From: an uncultured Methanosarcinaceae archaeon
GTDB lineage: Archaea > Halobacteriota > Methanosarcinia > Methanosarcinales > Methanosarcinaceae
NCBI GenBank assembly: GCA_963847185.1
Contig: CAWJYV010000002.1
Location: 32,001 to 96,000 of the forward strand
Length of the DNA: 64,000 bases
Reading direction: 5' to 3'
The position numbers were made by a program, and so were the translations under genes. This document shows, piece by piece, positions 3,866-60,811 of the stretch; the first letter of the stretch is position 1; the number at the start of each line of letters is the position of its first letter. The notes under the pieces were generated by a model, which was given only the letters and a program-made list of their open reading frames with translations, made no database searches and was not told the DNA's origin.

Positions 3866-4762
3866 TTACCACCCGCGTTCCTGGAGAGCTTCTGCAGCAG
3901 GGATCATATCTGCGCTGATGCCTTTCATGCCTGCACCCACGCCTTTTGAGATTTCTGCTAGTTTTGCAGGGTTGTCAAAGTTGTTGACTGCTTCAACAAT
4001 TGCCTTTGCCATCTTTTCAGGGTTTTCGGCTTTGAAAATTCCTGAGCCCACAAAAACTCCGTCTGCTCCAAGGCGCATCATAAGTGCTGCATCTGCAGGA
4101 GTTGCAACTCCGCCTGCTGCAAAGTTTACTACCGGAAGGCGCTGCATTTTTGCGGTTTCGACAACAAGTTCTATAGGAGCTTCTATTTCCCTTGCAACCA
4201 GAATGAGTTCTTCTTTGGTTTTTCCGGCAAGGGCACGGATTTCTCCCTGAATCTGCTTCATGTGCTTTACTGCCTGGCTGACATCTCCTGTTCCGGCTTC
4301 TCCTTTTGTCCGGATCATGGCTGCCCCTTCATTAATTCTGCGAAGAGCTTCTCCAAGGTTTCTGGCTCCGCAGACAAAAGGAACGGTAAACTGTGTCTTG
4401 TCTATGTGGTAGTAAGGGTCAGCAGGGGTCAGGACTTCTGATTCGTCCACCATGTCAACGCCAAGGGCTTCTAGAATTTCAGCCTCTACGAAATGTCCGA
4501 TCCTGGCTTTTGCCATTACAGGTATTGTGACCGTATCAATGATTTTTTGAACGATTTCAGGGTCTGCCATCCGGGCAACTCCCCCGGCTTTCCTGATATC
4601 TGCAGGGACAGCCTGAAGAGCCATAACGGCAACTGCTCCGGCTTCTTCTGCGATCCGGGCCTGTTCGGGAGTTGTAACGTCCATGATCACACCCCCTTTC
4701 TGCATCCGTGCAAAGCCCCGCTTGATAAGTTCGGTCCCGTGTCGTAATTTTTCGAAGTCCAT
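3866..4762 (-). CDS. pdxS: PLP synthase lyase subunit
   Basis: Motifs [29 protein letters not shown] and [13 protein letters not shown]; probable start MDFEKLR at 4762. Confidence 0.97.
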
Positions 4763-9398: not shown

Positions 9399-10010
9399 TT
9401 ATTTCCGCATTTTCTTGAAGTAATTGTCGATTTCTTCCCAGTTTACAATATTCCAGAACGCTTCTATGAATTTTGCCCTGTCATTCCTGTAATCAACATA
9501 GTAAGCATGTTCCCAGGTATCCAGAGCCATAATTATCGGATAATCAGGGACCACGTTTACATTATGCTTCTCTATCTGCATAATCATGAGCCTTTCTGTG
9601 TCTTTACAGTAAGTTAATGCCGCCCATCCTGATCCCTCCACAGTTGATGCAACCTGGGAAAACTCCTTTTTAAATCTGTCAAAGCCTCCGAAGTTTTCTT
9701 TGATTACTTCAGATAACTCCCCAACAGGTTCTTTGCTTGAATTGCTTGCAGGGGTCATCTCCCACCAGAAGTAATCGTGAAGAACATGCCCTGCAAGGTT
9801 AAAAGACAGGTTTTTTGCAGCTGCCTTATAATCAAAGTCAGTTCCTTCTTTCCTTGCTTTATCCATCATCTCTATAGCTGCATTTGCGTTAGTCACATAA
9901 GCCTGATGGTGTTTATCGTGGTGTAGCCTGAGTTGCTCTTCGGAAATATAAGGTGCCAGATCTCCATATCCATATTTCAAAGGCGGTAATTTGTATAAAC
10001 CTTTAGCCAT
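9399..10010 (-). CDS. sod: Fe/Mn superoxide dismutase
   Basis: Motifs LHHDKHHQAYV, GHVLHDYFW, GSGWA and DTWEHAYY; probable start MAKGLY at 10010. Confidence 0.96.
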   Translation of the reverse strand: MAKGLYKLPPLKYGYGDLAPYISEEQLRLHHDKHHQAYVTNANAAIEMMDKARKEGTDFDYKAAAKNLSFNLAGHVLHDYFWWEMTPASNSSKEPVGELSEVIKENFGGFDRFKKEFSQVASTVEGSGWAALTYCKDTERLMIMQIEKHNVNVVPDYPIIMALDTWEHAYYVDYRNDRAKFIEAFWNIVNWEEIDNYFKKMRK

Positions 10011-10493
10011 ATTATCTACCCTCTTTATAATCCTCTTATAATCAACTGGTTTCACAAAACTTGTTCAAGAGTCTGGATCCAAATACAAATCTATACTTTC
10101 CAGTTAAAGAGATCCCGAAGATATCCTGAAGAGATCCAAAGAAATTCCATTACAAGTTCTGCCCTGCTAACCAATTTTCCCCTTAACTCTGTTAACAGAA
10201 ATACATCTTCAAAGTGCTCTGTTACAAACGATTTTGTCGCTAAACGCTTTTCGCTGTGAAGCACTCTACTTTAAGCTTCTTCAAACACATATCAAATTGC
10301 GTCTGGCAATTCAAATGTAAAATATAATTATACATCGAACCTATTTAAAGTTAAAAGATACTACTTATAGATATTTTTGAAGAAAGGTATTTAGAATATC
10401 CATCAAATATTTGACGTATTAAAAATAAAACATAAGTAAAAAGAAAAAATAAAAATGAAATAAAAGAAGAAAAAAAGTTTTTCAGGACAAAAA

Positions 10494-11612: not shown

Positions 11613-14574
11613 TTATTCAAATTTAAAGTCACTTAATTCACAATTCCAGAACCAAGGCAAATCATCCAATGAAAAGCCAATAAAATCTTCGTCACGAGAA
11701 ATAACTCCTAGATTTTTAGCTTCTTCCCAATATAGCTCAACTTCTTCACAAAATTCCTGAAAGACTTCAGGGTAACATTTTAGAATTCCAATTAGCATAT
11801 AATTAACATTATTACTGTCATCCAATCCATGTTTCGTTCTAAAAATTGATGAAAATGCTATGTTAAATACATGCGACAAACAATTATCTATATGGTTGAT
11901 TAATAGTTTTATTGCCTTTAAAGAAGCATTATCTTTTGGTACTTTGCCATTTAGAAGTCTTTTAAAAAATGGATGGCGAGCATTGTAAATTACCCTATCA
12001 AAATCCTCAATAAAATTTGGCGGGTAAACAAAAAGTGGTGCCTTATCTAATAAATTACTATGCATTTGATAGGTGAACTCATTATGTGAAATGGAAAAAA
12101 TACCTTCATCTATTCTATCATTAGAAAATGCTTCAATTACTAATCCAGGAATGGAAGTAATGTAAAGTTCGGAAGAATTTCCTAAGATTCTATGTAAAAA
12201 CTCACTTCGTTGCTCTGCACCTTCGTCTTCATGCATCAAAAGAACTGTTTTTGCACCAACAAGGCGTCTAGCTTCATTTAATAAGATTGCATCAGGTATT
12301 TTCTTAGACCAGTCATTGAAGTAAGTAATTGCTAAACTTCTTGTTTTTATATTTTTTCATTGTATTATATACTCTTTGCCCATTATCCGAAATAGTTAAT
12401 AAAGGGACGTAGTTAGAAAAAAGCTTTTGCATGATATTTTCAAATTCTTCTTCTTTATAATCAAAGCCTAGTTCTGAGAATCCTTTAGATAAACTCAATA
12501 TATGATATTCCATCAGTTCATTAATATTTTTAACATATCCTTTAAATGAGTATGAATCTTTACTTGTTTCTAAATAGTTCTCTAGTTCTTCTAGAATACT
12601 TGATTGTATTTTACCAATTAGCTTTTTATACTTTTCATCCTCTACTAAATCCGACCTATTTGGTGATAAAGACAATTTAAAATTATCTGAAAGGTTTATT
12701 GACGCTTGAATACTATGAAATAATCTTTTAGGTAAGAGTTTTTGAGAAGGGATTGCAAATCCTCTCTGGGCAAAAATATTATCTCTATTTGGTGTAGGTT
12801 GAATAATTTGCAATTTACCTTTAATACCTTCTTTTTCGTCATCAAATATAATTTCAAAATATTTTTTCCCACTTTTTTGATCTTTATAATTTTTTCTTTC
12901 TCCTGGCAAATAAGGCTTATATGTCTCGATTTTCTCACTTGTCTCAATAACTATTGGGTACTCTATAAAAGGAGCAATCTCCGATATTTTTTCAACTAGT
13001 GATATGGAAGAGAAAGGATGATTAGATTTCAGCGATAGAGTTATTTTATTTCCAATGTAAACACGAGAAGACGGCCTTTGAACAAAATAATCATAAGCAG
13101 TTGGAATTTCAACGTTTATTGGGGCAGGTGGATTCAGTGGGTCGAGTGGCTTTCTTCTACTTTCGACTTTGAAACTGGAAGCTACCATAAAAACGGATAG
13201 AATACCTATTCCAAACTCACTAACTGGGTCAATTTCTATGCCGCTTGTGCGGCATTCTGAACTATTGTAGTAACTTCTTCCAATTTGCAAAAAATAGTTT
13301 TCGAAAATATCCTTATCCATTCCAATTCCATTATCTTCAATAATAAGTTCGTCACCTTTCAAAGTAATCTTAATGAATGGTGAGAATTGATTTCCTTCTT
13401 TCTTTTCCATTGATTCTCGGTAACGAACAGCATCTACTGAATTCTGCAAAAGTTCGCGGAGAGTTAAAGTAGGATCTCCATATAATCTCTCTCCCATTAA
13501 AAGATCAATAACTCGATGAAAATCAAGTTTAAAATGGAAATCAGAATAGATATATTCGCCATTAGATCTAATGTTCTCTTTTGTGACTGGTTTTAATAAA
13601 TCTAGCCTATATATTTCTGCTAAGTCATCTTTATAGCGTGACGTTAAAAGGATACTTTCTTTACGTTCGGTTTCTATCATGTCAATAAATTCACGAAGTG
13701 TACGTTCATAGATAGGATGTTCACATTCTGCTTCTATACTGATTTCTTTTTGAGATATTTTACATCCAATGATTGAGAGATGTTTATTCCACTCCTTGAC
13801 GCTTGTTTCATCCTTTGGATCAATAAAATCAAGTAGACATCTGGGTGTACGTTCTGGATCAAGATCTAAATTATCAGCTAAGCGAAGTATTACAGACAAA
13901 TACTGCACATTAACATTCTGATCTTTAACCAGAGCATCACGGCGCCAACGTCTTGTATCGTAAAGATCTCTTACGGGCAAACCGTGACTATCACATACTA
14001 CTTGAACTAATTTATAATATGGAACCCCTTTCCATGATATTGGTGTCTTTTTCAACCCATATTTTTCTTTGATTAGTTCATTAGAACGTTCTACATGTTT
14101 TCTACGGAGAAATTCAGTAAAAAGTTTATCTTCAATAAACGTTGCTAAACGATGATCTCCACTCTTTTTTGCTTTGTCAAGTTTAAAGCTTAATTCTTCA
14201 TTAGAAACGAGAAGCTTAGCAAATTCGGAATTATTCTTAATGATTTCTTCTCTTTCATCCTGTGAAGCTGTCATTCCTATATCATGAAGATATGCAGCGT
14301 AAATGAGTATAGACAGCTCGATAATGTTTAAGTGATCAAGCGTATCTGAGGGTATTATTTTTCCCATATGTTCAACTACTTTTGCACTATGGTTAGCATT
14401 ATGCAAAGTAAATTCAGGCATGTTTTCAGGAATTCTTTCAAGTAAAGGAGCTATCTCACGGATAACTGAGAATATATTTTCCGAAATTTCATGTTCTCCA
14501 AGCAAATCTTCTTTTTCAAGAAGCTGTTGAAACAGAACTGTTTTCTTCAATCTTTCAATAGCAGTTTCAGGCAT
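11613..14574 (-). CDS. HD-domain + Hsp90-like GHKL ATPase fusion of about 990 aa, split by one frameshift near 12355
   Basis: HD motifs FTLHNANHS, YLHDIGM, CDSHG and LRLADNLD; GHKL motifs LRELLQNSVDA, IEDNGIGM and SEFGIGILS. Removing one A from atgaaaaaat joins the 753-aa and 208-aa ORFs (MKNIKTRSLAITYFNDW...LMHEDEG). Confidence 0.85.
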
Positions 14575-15419: not shown

Positions 15420-16670
15420 ATGATTAAATTTGGAACAGTAAAGTCAGCGTTGCTAATGGCATTTATTGGAATGGTAATAATTGGAATGGTACAGCCCATT
15501 GCTGCGATGGGACAAAGTTCATCCAGTGAAATGGAACAGGATAATGAAAGAGATTCATATGAAGGGCAGGATTGCAAGGACTCTTCACATAATAAAACTA
15601 TGATGATGAAAGAGGGGTCCGAAAACGAAAAGATGATGCATTGTTGTATGATGCATGGTATGATGGGAGAAAGCTCAGAAAATAAGACTATGATGCATCA
15701 CTGCATGATGCATTGTATGATGCACGGTATGATGGGAGAAAGCTCAGAAAATAAAACAATGATGCATGGTACGATGGAAGAGAAAGCAGCTAACGAAAGC
15801 TGTTGCATGGCTAAAATGGATGAAAATGCCAGTATGGAACAGACCGAGAATGAATGCGCCATTTTCTGGCTGAAACAGGCCATTGAGCTGCACAAGATGC
15901 ATCTTGAGAATCCTAGCATGGCGACCAATGAATCTCAGATAGAACTTATGAATCAGATGAAGCAGGCCTACAAGCTCATCCCAGGAGAAAGCGCGGCTAT
16001 GGGAATGCTGTGTCCATCCAATGAAAGTATGGCAATGGGAGAGAAATTAACCAAAAAAGAGAAAATGGACTGTATGATGGGAGAGAAGTCGGGCAAAAAA
16101 GAGAAGATGGAATCCATGATGACGGAAGGGAAAGAAGCTAAAGAAGAGAAGATGGAATCCATGATGATGGAAGGGAAAGAAGCTAAAGAAGAGAAAATGG
16201 AATCCATGATGGAAGGAAAAGAAGCTAAAAAAGAGAAAATGGAATCCATGATGATGGGGGGGGAAGCAGCTAACGATAGCTGTTGCATGGCTAAAATGGA
16301 TCAGAATACAAGTATGATTCAGGCCAGGATGGACTGTGCCTGTTTCTGGCTGAAACAAGCCGTTGAGTTGCACAAAATGCATTTAGAGAATCCAAGTATG
16401 GCAACCAATGAATCTCAAATAAAGATGATGTGTCAGATGATAAAAGCCTACGAGTTGATTGTAGGAGAAAAAATGACTATGGAGTTGACGGATGAAACAA
16501 TGAATGATGAGTTAGAAGGATGGATGAATGAAACGGAAGAAGACCGGTTGGCAGAATGGACGAACAAAACAGAAGACGAAAAGTCAGAAGAATGGATGAG
16601 TGCAGCAGTAGATATCGAGTCTACAAAATCAATGGATACAAAAGCAAGCAATGAATCTTCAGCATGTTAA
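15420..16670 (+). CDS. Secreted Met/Cys/His-rich repeat protein, candidate metal-binding protein
   Basis: Signal peptide ending QPIAA; a gggggagt RBS; MHCCMMHGMMG and KEEKMESMMMEG repeats; a duplicated ~68-aa domain (AANESCCMAKMD...FWLKQAIELHKMHLENPSMATNESQ). Confidence 0.8.
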   Translation: MIKFGTVKSALLMAFIGMVIIGMVQPIAAMGQSSSSEMEQDNERDSYEGQDCKDSSHNKTMMMKEGSENEKMMHCCMMHGMMGESSENKTMMHHCMMHCMMHGMMGESSENKTMMHGTMEEKAANESCCMAKMDENASMEQTENECAIFWLKQAIELHKMHLENPSMATNESQIELMNQMKQAYKLIPGESAAMGMLCPSNESMAMGEKLTKKEKMDCMMGEKSGKKEKMESMMTEGKEAKEEKMESMMMEGKEAKEEKMESMMEGKEAKKEKMESMMMGGEAANDSCCMAKMDQNTSMIQARMDCACFWLKQAVELHKMHLENPSMATNESQIKMMCQMIKAYELIVGEKMTMELTDETMNDELEGWMNETEEDRLAEWTNKTEDEKSEEWMSAAVDIESTKSMDTKASNESSAC

Positions 16671-17200: not shown

Positions 17201-17489
17201 ATTTGTTCTTAATCAAATAGCTCTGGCCAGTGACTGTACTCAACTTTATAATTTGGATTGGGAAACTCAATATAACTGGATGTATAGCAGGCGATTGGAC
17301 TATTATTAGATCAGGCACAAGGGGGCTCGTCGAAAGTTCAAAAGCAGATTTGGAGAAGCTTCTTAAGGATGGGAATGTGTTAACATCACTTAAATAAATA
17401 CACGTAGCCAGTCCCTCGGTAGCTAATCATTTTTAAGCAGATCTGCACTACCTTTCTTTTTTACTGCACTATTTTTCAATCGATTTTCA

Positions 17490-17561
17490 AGTCAGAAGTG
17501 AGAATCGAACTCACATAATTCCGGGTTGCAGCCGGAAGCATAGCCACTCTGCCATTCTGAC
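17490..17561 (-). tRNA. tRNA-Cys(GCA), divergent and AT-rich, no encoded CCA
   Basis: Minus-strand sequence GTCAGAA TG GCAGAGTGGCTATGC T TCCGG CTGCAAC CCGGA ATTAT GTGAG TTCGATT CTCAC TTCTGAC T. It has a perfect 7-bp acceptor stem, 5-bp anticodon and T stems, a GCA anticodon and a U73 discriminator. Confidence 0.9.
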
Positions 17562-17756
17562 ACATATCCAGTTTATACATTCGTGTAGCAGATATTTTAT
17601 TATTGTCAGAACTATATTTAGTATTGCTAATCAGTAGAAGAGTTACTTTGATTGTGGATAGGCAAATTCTCGTATTAAAGAAAAATTCGTTGAAGATGAG
17701 TTTTTTTAACAAAAATATTATAAAATAATGCACATAATAAACATAATTTTAGATTT

Positions 17757-18091: not shown

Positions 18092-18994
18092 TTGCTTTTA
18101 ATTATTGGTGGCATTGCTCTGGCGTACGAAAACTGGATAGGCCATGCCCTGATAGCTATCATAAGCCTGATGCTGATAATTTATGTTATTACTACCGGTG
18201 CCATGCTTAGAGGAAGGATAAAAAGAAGTCCAAGAAATATCTTTAAACTTCATAGAAGGAGTGGCATTTACTTTGGAGCTTTCATCCTGGGATTATTCAG
18301 CTATGGTTTGTCGATGAGGCTACATCATGGAGAAGCAATACTATCCTCTGTTCACGGAAAACTGGGGCTGATTATCCTTCTCATTGTAATTATTCAGGTT
18401 ATCCCAAGTCTGATTTTAAAAAATAGAGACAGGTATAGAGGATTGCACAAAATAGCGGGATACACTCTGGCGCCAATTATATTCATTAACGCAAGTTGGG
18501 GCCTGTACAATGGTGTAATTGTCGGAACAAAGAACGTGGTTCTCTTTCATTCCATCTCTGGAGGCCTGGTTGCCCTTGTTCTTGTCTGGGTACTTCTAGA
18601 AATTAGATATCCAATAGACAGGTCACTAACCAGAGTCAGGATAGCAAGTTATCTTTCAACACTTCTGGTAACCGCTGGGTGCTGGATAGGGGGAGGCTAT
18701 AACTATTTAACGTCCTATGGTTCCGAAGTAAAACCCGTAATTCTGGCAGGTCCTTCTCCCTGGGCGCACGAGATTATAATGGAGGCAAAAGAGCACATTT
18801 TTGTCTTTCTGCCTATAATCGCACTCACCCTGTCAATTACTCTATCCATTTTCGACAGAGATTCTTTTCTGAGTGATGCTAAGCTCAGGCAAGCTCTTAC
18901 AATAATTGCGTTTCTGGCACTTTTCATGGTGCTGTTTATGTTCCTGATGGGAGCAATTATTTCAAACGCTGGACAGATTGGAACGGAGGCTTGA
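18092..18994 (+). CDS. Polytopic His-rich membrane protein with a cytochrome b561/DUF4079-like N-terminal half
   Basis: About 9 TM helices with His at GH, LHRRSG, SVHGKLG, GLHKIAG, FHSISG and WAHEIIMEAKEH. The frame stays open upstream to an ATT at 18020 behind a G-rich RBS. Confidence 0.7.
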   Translation: MLLIIGGIALAYENWIGHALIAIISLMLIIYVITTGAMLRGRIKRSPRNIFKLHRRSGIYFGAFILGLFSYGLSMRLHHGEAILSSVHGKLGLIILLIVIIQVIPSLILKNRDRYRGLHKIAGYTLAPIIFINASWGLYNGVIVGTKNVVLFHSISGGLVALVLVWVLLEIRYPIDRSLTRVRIASYLSTLLVTAGCWIGGGYNYLTSYGSEVKPVILAGPSPWAHEIIMEAKEHIFVFLPIIALTLSITLSIFDRDSFLSDAKLRQALTIIAFLALFMVLFMFLMGAIISNAGQIGTEA

Positions 18995-21312: not shown

Positions 21313-24211
21313 ATGGAAGTTACTATAGGAGTCTATGGCATGACCTGTGGTCACTGCCAGAAAAGAGTAGCTGATGCTATTTCTTCGCTTGAAGGAGTGG
21401 AATCCACTAATGTGGATCTCGAATCCGAACGCGCCATCGTTAGTTTTGACCCTCAAAAAGTAAGCCTTGAGGATATAATAGCAGCTATTCATAAGGCAGG
21501 GTACTCAACTGAAAGTGAAAAGGAAGTTCAGGTAAAGGATCAAGCGGCGCCTTCAGCCAGTAAAGAGCCAGAAAGCACGGTATTAGAAACAGAGATCCCT
21601 GAAGCTCCGAAAACTTCCAAAACTTTAGATACTGCAAAAATTACTTCAGGAGCGCCGGAAGAAGCTTCTCAAACCTGTTCTCTAAATGACACATGTAAGC
21701 TGGCAGAAGAAGGCTCTCAAATCCCAGGTCAGAAACCAGGCCTGAAGGAAATTACTCTTGGAGTCTCGGGTATGACCTGCTCGGCCTGTACCGCAAATAT
21801 TGAGAGAGTATTGAAGAAAAAAGAAGGCGTGGGTTCAGTAGTCGTGAATCTGGAGCTTGGAAAGGCAAAAGTCGGTTTTGATCCCGCTCTTATTTCTCCA
21901 AAGGAAATCGAGGAAACTATAGAATCCATAGGATACAGGGTAGAAAAGGATAGGGTAACTCTCAATCTTGAGGGGATGAGCTGTGCATCCTGTGCTGCAA
22001 ATATTGAGAAAATCCTTAATAAAACAGAAGGTGTGATCTCAACTTCAGTAAATTTCCCTCTTGAAAAGGCAGTTGTAGAATTTGATTCCACCCGCATTTC
22101 TGTCAGGGAAATTATTGCTGCAGTTCAGCGAATAGGTTATGGAGCATCTGTCAGAGCTGAGACTGTGGAATATGAAGACAGAGAACAGATGTTTCGAGAT
22201 GCTGAAATTCACAGGCAAAGAAATAACGTGATTATTGCTGCCGTGCTCGGAATTCCAATATCCCTGGGAAACATGAGCATGATGTTTCCTTTCCTCTCTC
22301 CTTTTGTACCTGCTTTTCTTACAGATCCTATTGTGCTTTTTATAATGTCTACTCTTGTAATTCTCTTTCCTGGCAGGCAATTTTTTGTAGGGACTTTCAA
22401 AGGTTTCAGGCACGGCGTAACAGATATGGATCTGCTGATTGCAGGTGGTACAGGATCGGCCTACCTTATAAGTGTAGCAGCAACATTTTTTGATCTGGGA
22501 CCTGGATATGACACCCTTTACTACGATACAGTAGGTCTTCTTATATTTTTCATCGTACTTGGCAGATACCTTGAAGTAAGGGCAAGGGGCCGGACTTCGG
22601 AAGCTATCCGAAAACTGATGGGACTCAGGGCAAAAACCTCCAGAATCCTTGTAAATGGCGTAGAAAAGGACGTTCCTGTGGAAGAAGTAGTAGTTGGGGA
22701 CGTTGTTATTGTCCGGCCGGGAGAGAAGATTCCAGTTGACGGAATTGTTGTAGAAGGTAATTCTGCCGTGGACGAGTCAATGCTTACCGGCGAAAGTATT
22801 CCGGTAGAAAAAGGTCCCGGAAGTACGGTTATCGGGGCTACGCTCAATAAAACAGGATCTTTTAATTTTCGGGCTACGAAAGTCGGAGCTGATACTGCTC
22901 TTGCCCAGATAGTCAGGCTTGTTGAGACTGCTCAAACCACAAAAGCCCCTATACAGAGAATTGCAGATGTATTTGCTGGCAACTTCATAATAGCCGTGCA
23001 CATTCTTACCCTACTAGCCTTCCTCTTCTGGTTTTTCATAGGTTACTGGCACTATGGTGTATCGGTAGATATGGAAGGAATCAGTCCATTCCTTTTTTCT
23101 CTCCTTGTGGGCATTACTATACTTGTAATCTCATGCCCTTGTGCAGTGGGGCTTGCAACTCCTGCGGCCATTATGGTAGGTACAGGCAGAGGTGCGGAGA
23201 ACGGAGTTCTTATAAAAGGTGGGGAAGCTCTTGAAATGGCACACAAACTTGACACTATAGTTTTCGACAAAACAGGAACCCTCACGGAAGGCACTCCAAA
23301 ACTCACAGATTTGTTTGCATCCCCCGGTCATGAAGAGAAAGAGGTTCTTTTTATAGCTGCAACAGCTGAGAAAGGATCGGAACATCCCCTGGGAGAAGCT
23401 ATCGTAAAAGGAGCTGAAGAAAGGAACATTAGCCTTGAAAAGGCTGAAAACTTCCAGTCCGTTCCAGGGAAAGGAGTAGAAGCTTATCTTGAAGGAAAGA
23501 GAATTTTGCTCGGCACTCGCAAACTAATGGAAGAAAATAAAATTCCCTTTGAGAAACTTGAGCCCAAAATGCGTGCATTTGAAGAAAATGGGAAAACCGC
23601 AATGCTTGTAGCTCTCGATAATGAAATCGTAGGTATTGTTGCAGTTGCCGATACCCTGAAGGAAAACTCCAGGGAAGCAGTTGAGACCCTGAAAAAAATG
23701 GGAATAGAAGTTGTCATGATCACCGGAGACAATGCTAGAACAGCCAGTGCAATAGCAAAAGAAGTGGGCATCCCGAGAGTGCTTGCCGAGGTGCTTCCAG
23801 AGGATAAAGCAAATGAAATAAAAAAGCTGCAAGCGGAGGGCAAGCTTGTTGGGATGGTGGGTGACGGCATTAATGACGCTCCTGCATTAATTCAGTCCGA
23901 TGTGGGAATTGCTATGGGAGCAGGCACGGATGTGGCAATGGAATCTGCAAAAATCGTACTTATAAAAAATGATCCCGAGAGATGTAGTCGTATCTCTTAA
24001 GTTGAGCCGGCTTACTATAAGCAAGATCAAGCAAAACCTTTTCTGGGCTTTTGGATACAATACTATAGGCATTCCTATTGCAGCTGGAATTCTTTACCCC
24101 TTCTTCCATAGGATCCTTATCACACCTGAACTTGCTGCCGCTTTCATGGCATTAAGTTCGGTTTCAGTAACTACCAACTCCCTGCTAATGAAAAGAAGCA
24201 AACTTAAGTAA
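21313..24211 (+). CDS. copA: Cu(+)-exporting P1B ATPase with 3 HMA domains; one frameshift near 23975
   Basis: Three GMxCxxC motifs, TGES, CPC, DKTGT, SEHP and GDGINDAP. The C-terminal YN and MALSS motifs lie in the 23969-24211 ORF, joined by removing one C from gatcccgaga. Confidence 0.93.
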
Positions 24212-60418: not shown

Positions 60419-60739
60419 AGTTAATGGAAAAACAAGAACAGAAAAAGGGATATTATAAGGAGGGGGCAATGGCTCCGAAGCCTTTTTATTATCTCAAATA
60501 ATCATTTTTCTATTTATGTATCGTGTACGGAAAAAATAACACTGACTGGATGTTAAGGGTATTTCACTGAAATATTGGTATTTCTGTTCAATTATCTAAA
60601 AAGACCTTTACCTTGTAAAGGATACTTTATTTCTATAAAAAAGGGAAAATAAAAGAAGATCCAAATTTTTTTGAAATCTTTCGTGAAAACTATAAACAAT
60701 ATAGAGCATTATATTTAGGACTATTAAAAAGTTTTTAAG

Positions 60740-60811
60740 TGGACTCGGCGGGATTTGAACCCGCGGCCTTTACGTTGCGAACGTAACGATCTTCCCCTGA
60801 TCTACGAGCCC
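60740..60811 (-). tRNA. tRNA-Ala(CGC)
   Basis: Minus-strand sequence GGGCTCGTAGATCAGGGGAAGATCGTTACGTTCGCAACGTAAAGGCCGCGGGTTCAAATCCCGCCGAGTCCA, with G3:U70 and anticodon CGC. Confidence 0.96.

Follow-up and report, generated by a model that had tools for sequence, protein, structure and literature searches.

Methanosarcina is a model for two coexisting routes to Cys-tRNA, and it raises the question of how labor is divided between SepRS/SepCysS and CysRS. In M. mazei, Hauenstein and Perona reportedly described in 2008 tRNA-Cys isoacceptors that are preferred by different synthetases. The idea considered here is the same, i.e., that the tRNA-Cys species of an organism with both SepRS and CysRS are split between the two enzymes; however, the M. 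mazei isoacceptors differ in core determinants, and in the excerpted text of a review m1G37 matters for both enzymes, helping SepRS and CysRS alike in M. mazei and in most archaea. The M. mazei transcript used for biochemistry, as far as it is given in an excerpt of PMC4329189, is of the housekeeping type that begins with GCCAAG and carries G37. In M. maripaludis, an excerpt of PMC2330236 lists U73, the anticodon G34-C35-A36, G15 and A47 as elements common to CysRS and SepRS, and G37, A59, G1:C72 and G10:C25 as minor elements of importance to SepRS alone.

Non-canonical tRNA-Cys has also been described in other settings. Methanogens that use SepRS include species with the discriminator A73 (Methanolobus, Methanocella), G73 or C73 (Perona et al. 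2018, via an excerpt of PMC8762117), and partly orthogonal charging has been proposed for these variants (PMC8762117). In 'Ca. Parcubacteria', a tRNA-Cys-bac with A37 next to the GCA anticodon coexists with a G37 tRNA-Cys within one genome (Mukai et al. 2017, excerpt of PMC5424206). Here, an A37 accessory tRNA-Cys isodecoder from within Methanosarcina is reported, in a genome where a relocated copy has outlived the original. Unlike the altered-discriminator variants, this tRNA has the standard U73 and is changed at 37/38, 59 and 2:71; its kinship with the bacterial-type tRNA is confined to the anticodon arm, and its ancestor is an archaeal G37 tRNA. No mention of an A37 Methanosarcina tRNA-Cys was found in the excerpted literature on tRNA-Cys and its isoacceptors, including portions of PMC9499178, PMC5424206, PMC4329189, PMC9976931, PMC8762117 and PMC2330236, a scope outside which the primary 2006 and 2008 papers and the supplements lie; the lineage may already have been noted somewhere.

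A divergent tRNA-Cys gene and the tRNA-Cys set of its genome

In the whole stretch of DNA that was analysed (64 kb, hereafter the window), ARAGORN placed a tRNA-Cys(gca) of 72 nt with exact bounds at 17490-17561 on the minus strand. Rfam scored the same interval at 58.4 bits against RF00005 (gathering threshold 29; E value 4.9e-10 for the 64-kb window), with the match spanning model positions 1-71. The cloverleaf, the 7-bp acceptor stem and the GTTCGA-type T loop place the gene in this family, in agreement with ARAGORN. The first-pass annotation had called this tRNA hidden; it is not, because both standard tools detect it with high scores.

Reading of the sequence showed an acceptor stem, GUCAGAA/UUCUGAC, in which seven of seven pairs are Watson-Crick, a D stem of three pairs plus G13.A22, an anticodon stem of five pairs extended by U26:A44, and a T stem of five pairs with the T loop UUCGAUU, which places U at position 59. 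The anticodon GCA lies at 17527-17529 and is followed by A37 (17526) and C38 (17525) in the loop CUGCAAC (feature 17525-17529, minus strand). The variable loop AUUAU provides A47 and U48, position 15 is G, the discriminator is U73, and CCA is not encoded, the genomic trailer being TGAAAA. As a single sequence, the RNA has a near-cloverleaf as its minimum-free-energy fold (-24.3 kcal/mol, z = -2.47). These results bear out the earlier description of a minus-strand cloverleaf with paired stems, GCA and U73, as well as that of an AT-rich acceptor stem (GTCAGAA/TTCTGAC) and A37. The G15/U48 Levitt pair is likewise present, but is not atypical as had been supposed, because the canonical copies have the identical pair. 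An 85-aa ORF with a GTG start covers the tRNA on the same strand (17476-17733, minus strand) and is judged spurious, in line with the first reading, from an ORF list and from cross-species similarity that extends only over the tRNA. The window contains a second tRNA, a tRNA-Ala(CGC) at 60739-60811 on the minus strand (Rfam, 67.2 bits).

The host genome (G000; 4.04 Mb in 10 contigs) contains a tRNA-Pyl and, by ARAGORN, 64 tRNAs, and 10 of the latter are tRNA-Cys: four canonical copies in tandem on contig C8, five divergent copies on C1, and the window copy, which is the most divergent of the ten (57-65% identity to the other nine). All four canonical copies begin with GCCAAG and carry G37, as had been stated for methanogen tRNA-Cys, and they have A59. 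Of the 16 genera sampled in the family, 15 have this type, with identities of 93-100%, and it is therefore the housekeeping tRNA-Cys. The extra isodecoder proposed for the window is genuine, with A37 against the housekeeping G37, and at 63% identity to the canonical type it is not another copy of the standard chromosomal gene. Both types have 72 nt, GCA, U73, G1:C72, G10:C25, G13.A22, G15, U48, a 7-nt D loop and a Watson-Crick 26:44 pair; the last was dropped as a special feature of the window tRNA, since the canonical copies have A26:U44. The housekeeping type differs in G37/A38, A59 and C2:G71, in its own TATA-type promoter without the palindrome described below, and in its span across the family, the window type being restricted to a single genus. 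A37 after A36 is also found in three tRNA-Ser and in the tRNA-Pyl of G000. SepRS and CysRS are both encoded in this genome; the first-pass annotation had named both Cys-tRNA routes for Methanosarcina.

Four of the divergent tRNA-Cys genes on C1 lie within 1.8 kb (C1:147043-148817), directly upstream of a SepCysS-like ORF of 462 aa (C1:148830-150218, PF05889; locus L045, G000:C1:144000-151000). The last of these tRNA genes (C1:148746), 13 nt before the ORF, represents a second A37 lineage. G004 repeats this arrangement of tRNA-Cys and SepCysS-like gene; in G006, a metY paralogue follows the tRNA of the second A37 lineage. The accessory tRNA-Cys at C1:147043 has A33 in place of the near-universal U33 (loop CAGCAGA), and the M. 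mazei tRNA-Cys sequence in an excerpt of PMC4329189 likewise shows A33. In g14, another genus of the family, a divergent tRNA-Cys with A37 precedes cysS, the CysRS gene, by 29-40 nt in the same orientation, in a pair-like arrangement (e.g., L041, G099:C1:1860100-1868100, with the tRNA at ~4012-4086, and G084:C1:2048139-2048194).

Five RNA-labelled runs contained a small share of matching words, and four of them were compared (X1, X3, X4 and X5). A single contig of 105 nt (depth 6.5) from X3, a size-fractionated metatranscriptome, consists of tRNA positions 35-72, three letters and tRNA positions 1-64, with zero mismatches. The three junction letters are TGG on the plus strand, which was assumed, and they read CCA in the tRNA sense because the joint is described on that strand. 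Since CCA is absent from the genome, the contig represents mature RNA that has the predicted termini and has received CCA, its 3' end having been fused to its 5' end in library making or assembly. These data indicate that a mature, CCA-tailed tRNA of the window type exists; any species with an identical tRNA could be the source. The other runs were rejected as evidence of expression: X1 covers only the DUF2795 gene, and the contigs of X4 and X5, whose depth is mute on transcription, come from the loci of relatives because the flanks of the tRNA differ.

Home locus, conservation and relocated copies

The window tRNA was matched in 19 of 24 genomes of the same genus (84-100% identity), and in 18 of 19 Methanosarcina genomes of a second draw; 16 genomes from other families within the order gave no match. 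An intact tRNA-Cys was found by ARAGORN in 19 of 20 fetched loci, and the loop CUGCAAC is constant in all 19 A37-type sequences. The 17-nt anticodon arm was scanned in 185,579 species genomes, one per species, with at least 120 matches. Among the matches listed, at least 31 loci are of the window type (ARAGORN), all in Methanosarcina, Methanosarcinales or Methanosarcinaceae records save two or three with vaguer labels ('Methanobacteriota archaeon', 'metagenome'); at least three bacterial and at least eight viral tRNA-Cys share only the searched arm, and the nearest kin are not these but Methanosarcinaceae tRNAs at the syntenic locus.

In 19 genomes of the first sample, flank protein comparison and Pfam names gave the home order iscS, iscU, nadA, tRNA, metY, metX, and three further genomes have the same iscSU-nadA/tRNA/metYX order. 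By Pfam, metY belongs to the O-acetylhomoserine sulfhydrylase family, and metX is an alpha/beta hydrolase with CBS. The home-locus tRNA is on the metY strand, ~80-300 nt upstream of metY, and two TCACAATTGTGA palindromes (exact or with one change) lie within ~70 nt upstream of it. In sister genera, the tRNA-Cys at this locus is 86-90% identical over the core and has G37, with the same D and T arms as the window type; G096 has a GCCAGAA...CUGCAGA tRNA after iscS-iscU-nadA, and G108 a G37 tRNA behind two palindromes and before metY-metX. U59 is common to these G37 relatives. The congener G146 has two tandem tRNA-Cys between nadA and metY, of which the first is the exact window sequence and the second combines the GUCAGAA acceptor stem with the G37 loop CUGCAGA. 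Because sister genera have G37 at the same locus and because of the G146 tandem, the A37 form arose inside the genus, and the simplest reading of the sequences is that a native gene was duplicated and altered within Methanosarcina to give A37/C38.

An alignment of 24 sequences was made from 19 of the A37 type and five G37 relatives, with identical rows (L001, L002, L004, the first L042 copy, L016 and L023) and decayed copies (L020, L027, L031-L033 and L043) left out. Across these 24 sequences, 98.2% of stem cells are paired, compared to 29-49% in slid controls, and both sides have changed in 7 of 21 pairs (e.g., A6:U67 to G6:C67 and U26:A44 to C26:G44). The covariation score was reached by 0 of 500 shuffles, in a kind of test that kinship among sequences inflates. 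Positions 27-43, the anticodon arm, are invariant in 19 of 19 A37-type sequences; variation is seen in the acceptor stem, the D loop and the variable loop. Furthermore, at least four other genomes carry the window tRNA with 100% identity, and their flanks are 78-93% identical or unalignable. The compensatory changes and this identity despite differing flanks show that the tRNA is kept by selection, which supports the earlier view that fully compensated stems speak against random decay. Four congeners are without the whole home locus and one without the tRNA alone; the A37 lineage is thus dispensable.

In G000, the home-locus copy (C10:183746-183808) matches positions 9-72 at 89% identity and is truncated at the 5' end, with seven substitutions and one deletion, the latter in the T loop. 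Two palindromes precede it, and a 43-aa metY remnant and then an intact metX follow. At L027 (G000:C10:173800-193799, with the decayed tRNA-Cys and the metY remnant at ~9947-10296), iscS-iscU-nadA is not upstream of the decayed copy. The home locus of G009 is in the same decayed state. With the home-locus copy decayed, G000 has no intact member of this type other than the window gene.

Outside the home locus, the tRNA was found at seven places in six genomes. Some of these relocated copies have neighbors in common with the window, namely a DUF4079 gene in G009 and G024, a Met-rich protein in G003 and a methyltransferase in G001. An upstream block of ~21 nt is recognizable in four of the seven relocated copies (the window, G009, G004 and G001), and the TCACAATTGTGA palindrome is absent from these same four; at the window, none was found in the 100 nt upstream of the tRNA. 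The block in the window, GAATGTATAAACTGGATATGT, lies at 17562-17582 on the minus strand, and with upstream sequences laid side by side it is common to the relocated copies L001, L022 and L011; we infer that it probably marks a duplicated unit of shared origin. Further upstream, an A/T-rich box, AATAATAAAATATC, at -43 to -30 (17591-17604, minus strand) is a candidate archaeal BRE/TATA element judged by its sequence, and it lies about as far from its tRNA as do the TTTATAT boxes found upstream of the four canonical copies. A scan for sigma-70 promoters and terminators was set aside, as the host is archaeal.

The DUF4079 membrane protein (18092-18994, plus strand; Pfam) is a conserved flank of the relocated copy here and in two relatives (synteny with L001 and L004). 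In other congeners, the DUF4079 gene stands without an adjoining tRNA, and the DUF4079-methyltransferase-CopA neighborhood is conserved across the genus without the tRNA; the ~3 kb that harbors the tRNA together with DUF2795 and the Met-rich gene is specific to the lineage. The accessory island of the first-pass annotation stands as a lineage-specific stretch of 3 kb, but horizontal acquisition of the tRNA is not supported. Neither an integrase nor a transposase turned up in a scan of 27 ORFs from 2.9 to 36.9 kb, which includes those within ~8 kb of the tRNA, and the 23-nt 3' end of the tRNA occurs once in the window with up to three mismatches allowed; neither of the two marks of a mobile-element integration site, an integrase and a direct 3' repeat, was found there. 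A 753-aa protein with HD-CE and GHKL ATPase domains (PF24391, PF13589) is encoded at 12313-14574 on the minus strand, where the local G+C is low (0.30-0.36).

The product of the Met-rich gene (15420-16670, plus strand) has 416 aa, a hydrophobic N-terminus and repeats rich in MMH and CC; translation and composition give 16.6% Met and 3.8% Cys, and it has no Pfam family. A homologue adjoins the tRNA in one other genome (L002). The gene lies near CopA, and its product may be a copper-binding envelope protein. The end of this gene is 820 nt from the tRNA gene, and a three-HMA CopA ATPase lies at 21313-24000 with its start 3.75 kb from the tRNA; the first-pass annotation was accurate on the Cys/Met-rich gene ~0.8 kb away and on the presence of copper genes nearby. 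A functional tie between the tRNA and these genes is without support, however, because tRNAs act in trans and most species carry this tRNA elsewhere; the Met-rich gene is a neighbor with no part in the function of the tRNA.

A palindrome shared by accessory tRNA-Cys and sulfur genes

The 12-nt palindrome TCACAATTGTGA occurs 10 times in G000, against 0.43 occurrences expected from base composition (C1:147020, 148030, 148258, 148470 and 232644; C8:1051384; C9:34177 and 34206; C10:183676 and 183695), and none of these sites is in the window. Four other genomes contain 12, 8, 4 and 3 occurrences, and G012, which is also without the home locus and the A37 tRNA, contains zero. The reversed pattern, used as a control, gave zero in every genome searched. 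The palindrome lies 8-11 nt before accessory tRNA-Cys genes, three of them on C1 upstream of the SepCysS-like gene, and likewise in G004 and G006. It also precedes iscS, metY-metX, a cysK-type PALP enzyme with a hexapeptide-transferase/FeS-assembly protein after it (a cysK-cysE-like order), a ThiS-like protein, a methyltransferase with a tRNA-Thr-ED homologue and, twice, a 95-aa ORF. In G005, it is kept before metY though the tRNA is gone, and the four canonical tRNA-Cys genes have a TATA-type promoter and no palindrome.

From these positions, TCACAATTGTGA is probably an operator, of a cysteine/sulfur regulon that would include tRNA-Cys genes. Three candidates for its regulator were rejected: an 88-aa HTH_24 protein is missing in two genomes that have the palindrome, G014 and G096; the 95-aa ORF is present in G004 only, of five genomes searched; and of a 134-aa HTH_3-like gene that neighbors iscS, G000 has no more than a paralogue with 38% identity. 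Among the titles listed in searches of the literature, no archaeal report on this palindrome and no relevant one on a Methanosarcina cysteine regulator was found. A fuller model, in which the accessory tRNA-Cys set would be under this regulon, its A37 members would feed CysRS, and the window gene would have escaped the control, is tentative and rather unlikely to hold in all its parts.

Charging by SepRS or CysRS and competing explanations

The window tRNA has the GCA anticodon, U73, G15 and A47, i.e., the whole set shared by CysRS and SepRS. Among the SepRS-only elements, G1:C72 and G10:C25 are present, whereas G37 and A59 are absent and replaced by A37 and U59; A37 marks the window tRNA and every one of the 19 lineage sequences. 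In contrast, none of the four SepRS-only elements is missing in the canonical copies. This pattern fits the bias towards CysRS that had been proposed, which is plausible, as does the A37 tRNA-Cys just before cysS in g14, and it is evenly balanced whether the window tRNA would be charged preferentially by CysRS. Against such a bias, the second A37 lineage (C1:148746) ends just before the SepCysS-like gene. Also against it count the benefit of m1G37 for both enzymes in the review excerpts, the presence of U59 in the G37 relatives, and A37 after A36 in other tRNAs of G000. In an excerpt of PMC5424206, M. maripaludis SepRS charged an A37 tRNA-Cys in vitro. Co-occurrence of the A37 tRNA with CysRS (TIGR00435) was dropped as a line of evidence: CysRS is present in 19 of 19 sampled Methanosarcina genomes and in G008, which is without the tRNA, and the co-occurrence carries no signal because CysRS is also present in six of six genomes of the sister genus that keeps G37. 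MiaA, a possible modifier of A37, was sought as PF01715 and not found in the genome; the control was found in 10 of 14 reference genomes.

The explanation preferred here, in which the gene is a functional accessory isodecoder that originated in the genus, was relocated and may be preferred by CysRS, is probable as a whole, and the part of it that describes a real, vertically inherited and relocated isodecoder is very likely. The ancestor would be a second, non-housekeeping tRNA-Cys of the family at iscS-iscU-nadA/metY-metX, behind two TCACAATTGTGA palindromes. Within the genus, this tRNA would have gained U2:A71, the Watson-Crick 26:44 pair, G37A, A38C and one extra base in the variable loop, with conservation from then on. 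The window gene is very likely a duplicate that moved without the palindromes, and in G000 the ancestral copy and the adjoining metY have decayed, with the window gene alone remaining intact. Its RNA would be transcribed, trimmed at both ends and CCA-tailed, and would read UGU and UGC. Because A37 cannot become m1G37 and A59 is missing, the tRNA would be a poorer substrate of SepRS and would be charged mainly by CysRS, i.e., by the direct route with free cysteine.

It is possible, but on balance doubtful, that the gene is instead a neutral, redundant isodecoder that both enzymes charge alike, in which A37/C38 drifted and a relocated copy came to replace a decayed one. The in vitro charging of an A37 tRNA-Cys by an archaeal SepRS, as excerpted, the other A37 tRNA-Cys directly before a SepCysS-like gene, the absence of the A37 lineage from some congeners and the uninformative co-occurrence with CysRS would all suit such neutrality. 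Drift, however, would not be expected to hold positions 27-43 invariant in 19 of 19 A37-type sequences while other regions vary, nor to cluster several changes relative to the G37 relatives in the anticodon arm, and G000 kept its A37 copy and lost the original.

The first-pass annotation had favored horizontal acquisition, and an origin of the gene as a foreign tRNA-Cys carried by a bacterium, virus or plasmid onto an accessory island is now largely refuted and very improbable. The tRNA is genus-wide (19 of 24 and 18 of 19 genomes) with a conserved home locus between iscSU-nadA and metYX, where sister genera have G37 forms that share the D and T arms of the window type and where the G146 tandem provides an intermediate; among the matches listed, the window type is found in records titled Methanosarcina, Methanosarcinales or Methanosarcinaceae and in a few vaguely labelled ones. 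A37 is the usual bacterial state according to an excerpt of a review, the immediate 3-kb context is lineage-specific, and at least eight viral contigs have a tRNA-Cys with the same 17-nt anticodon arm; however, the viral and bacterial tRNAs listed share nothing beyond the searched arm, and neither an integrase or transposase within ~8 kb nor a repeat of the 3' end in the window was found. It is extremely improbable that the window gene is a pseudogene, a duplicate in decay or without expression, even though the ancestral promoter palindromes are absent and no oligo-T run directly follows the tRNA: the stems are all intact, the sequence is 100% identical in at least four genomes with flanks that are 78-93% identical or unalignable, and X3 contains the CCA-tailed RNA. 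The truly decayed copy in G000 looks different, with its truncation, seven substitutions and deletion.

For the preferred explanation, i.e., a relocated, vertically inherited A37 isodecoder, the significance is moderate for the tRNA alone, and it would be higher if the regulon and the division of charging routes were true. A conserved tRNA-Cys without G37 and A59 is a natural probe of the division between SepRS/SepCysS and CysRS. If the regulon were confirmed, it would be an archaeal example of tRNA isodecoder genes that share specific transcriptional control with the pathway of the cognate amino acid, and if the A37 members of the accessory set do feed CysRS under that control, the cell would shift its Cys-tRNA supply between the free-cysteine and the tRNA-dependent routes by sulfur status.
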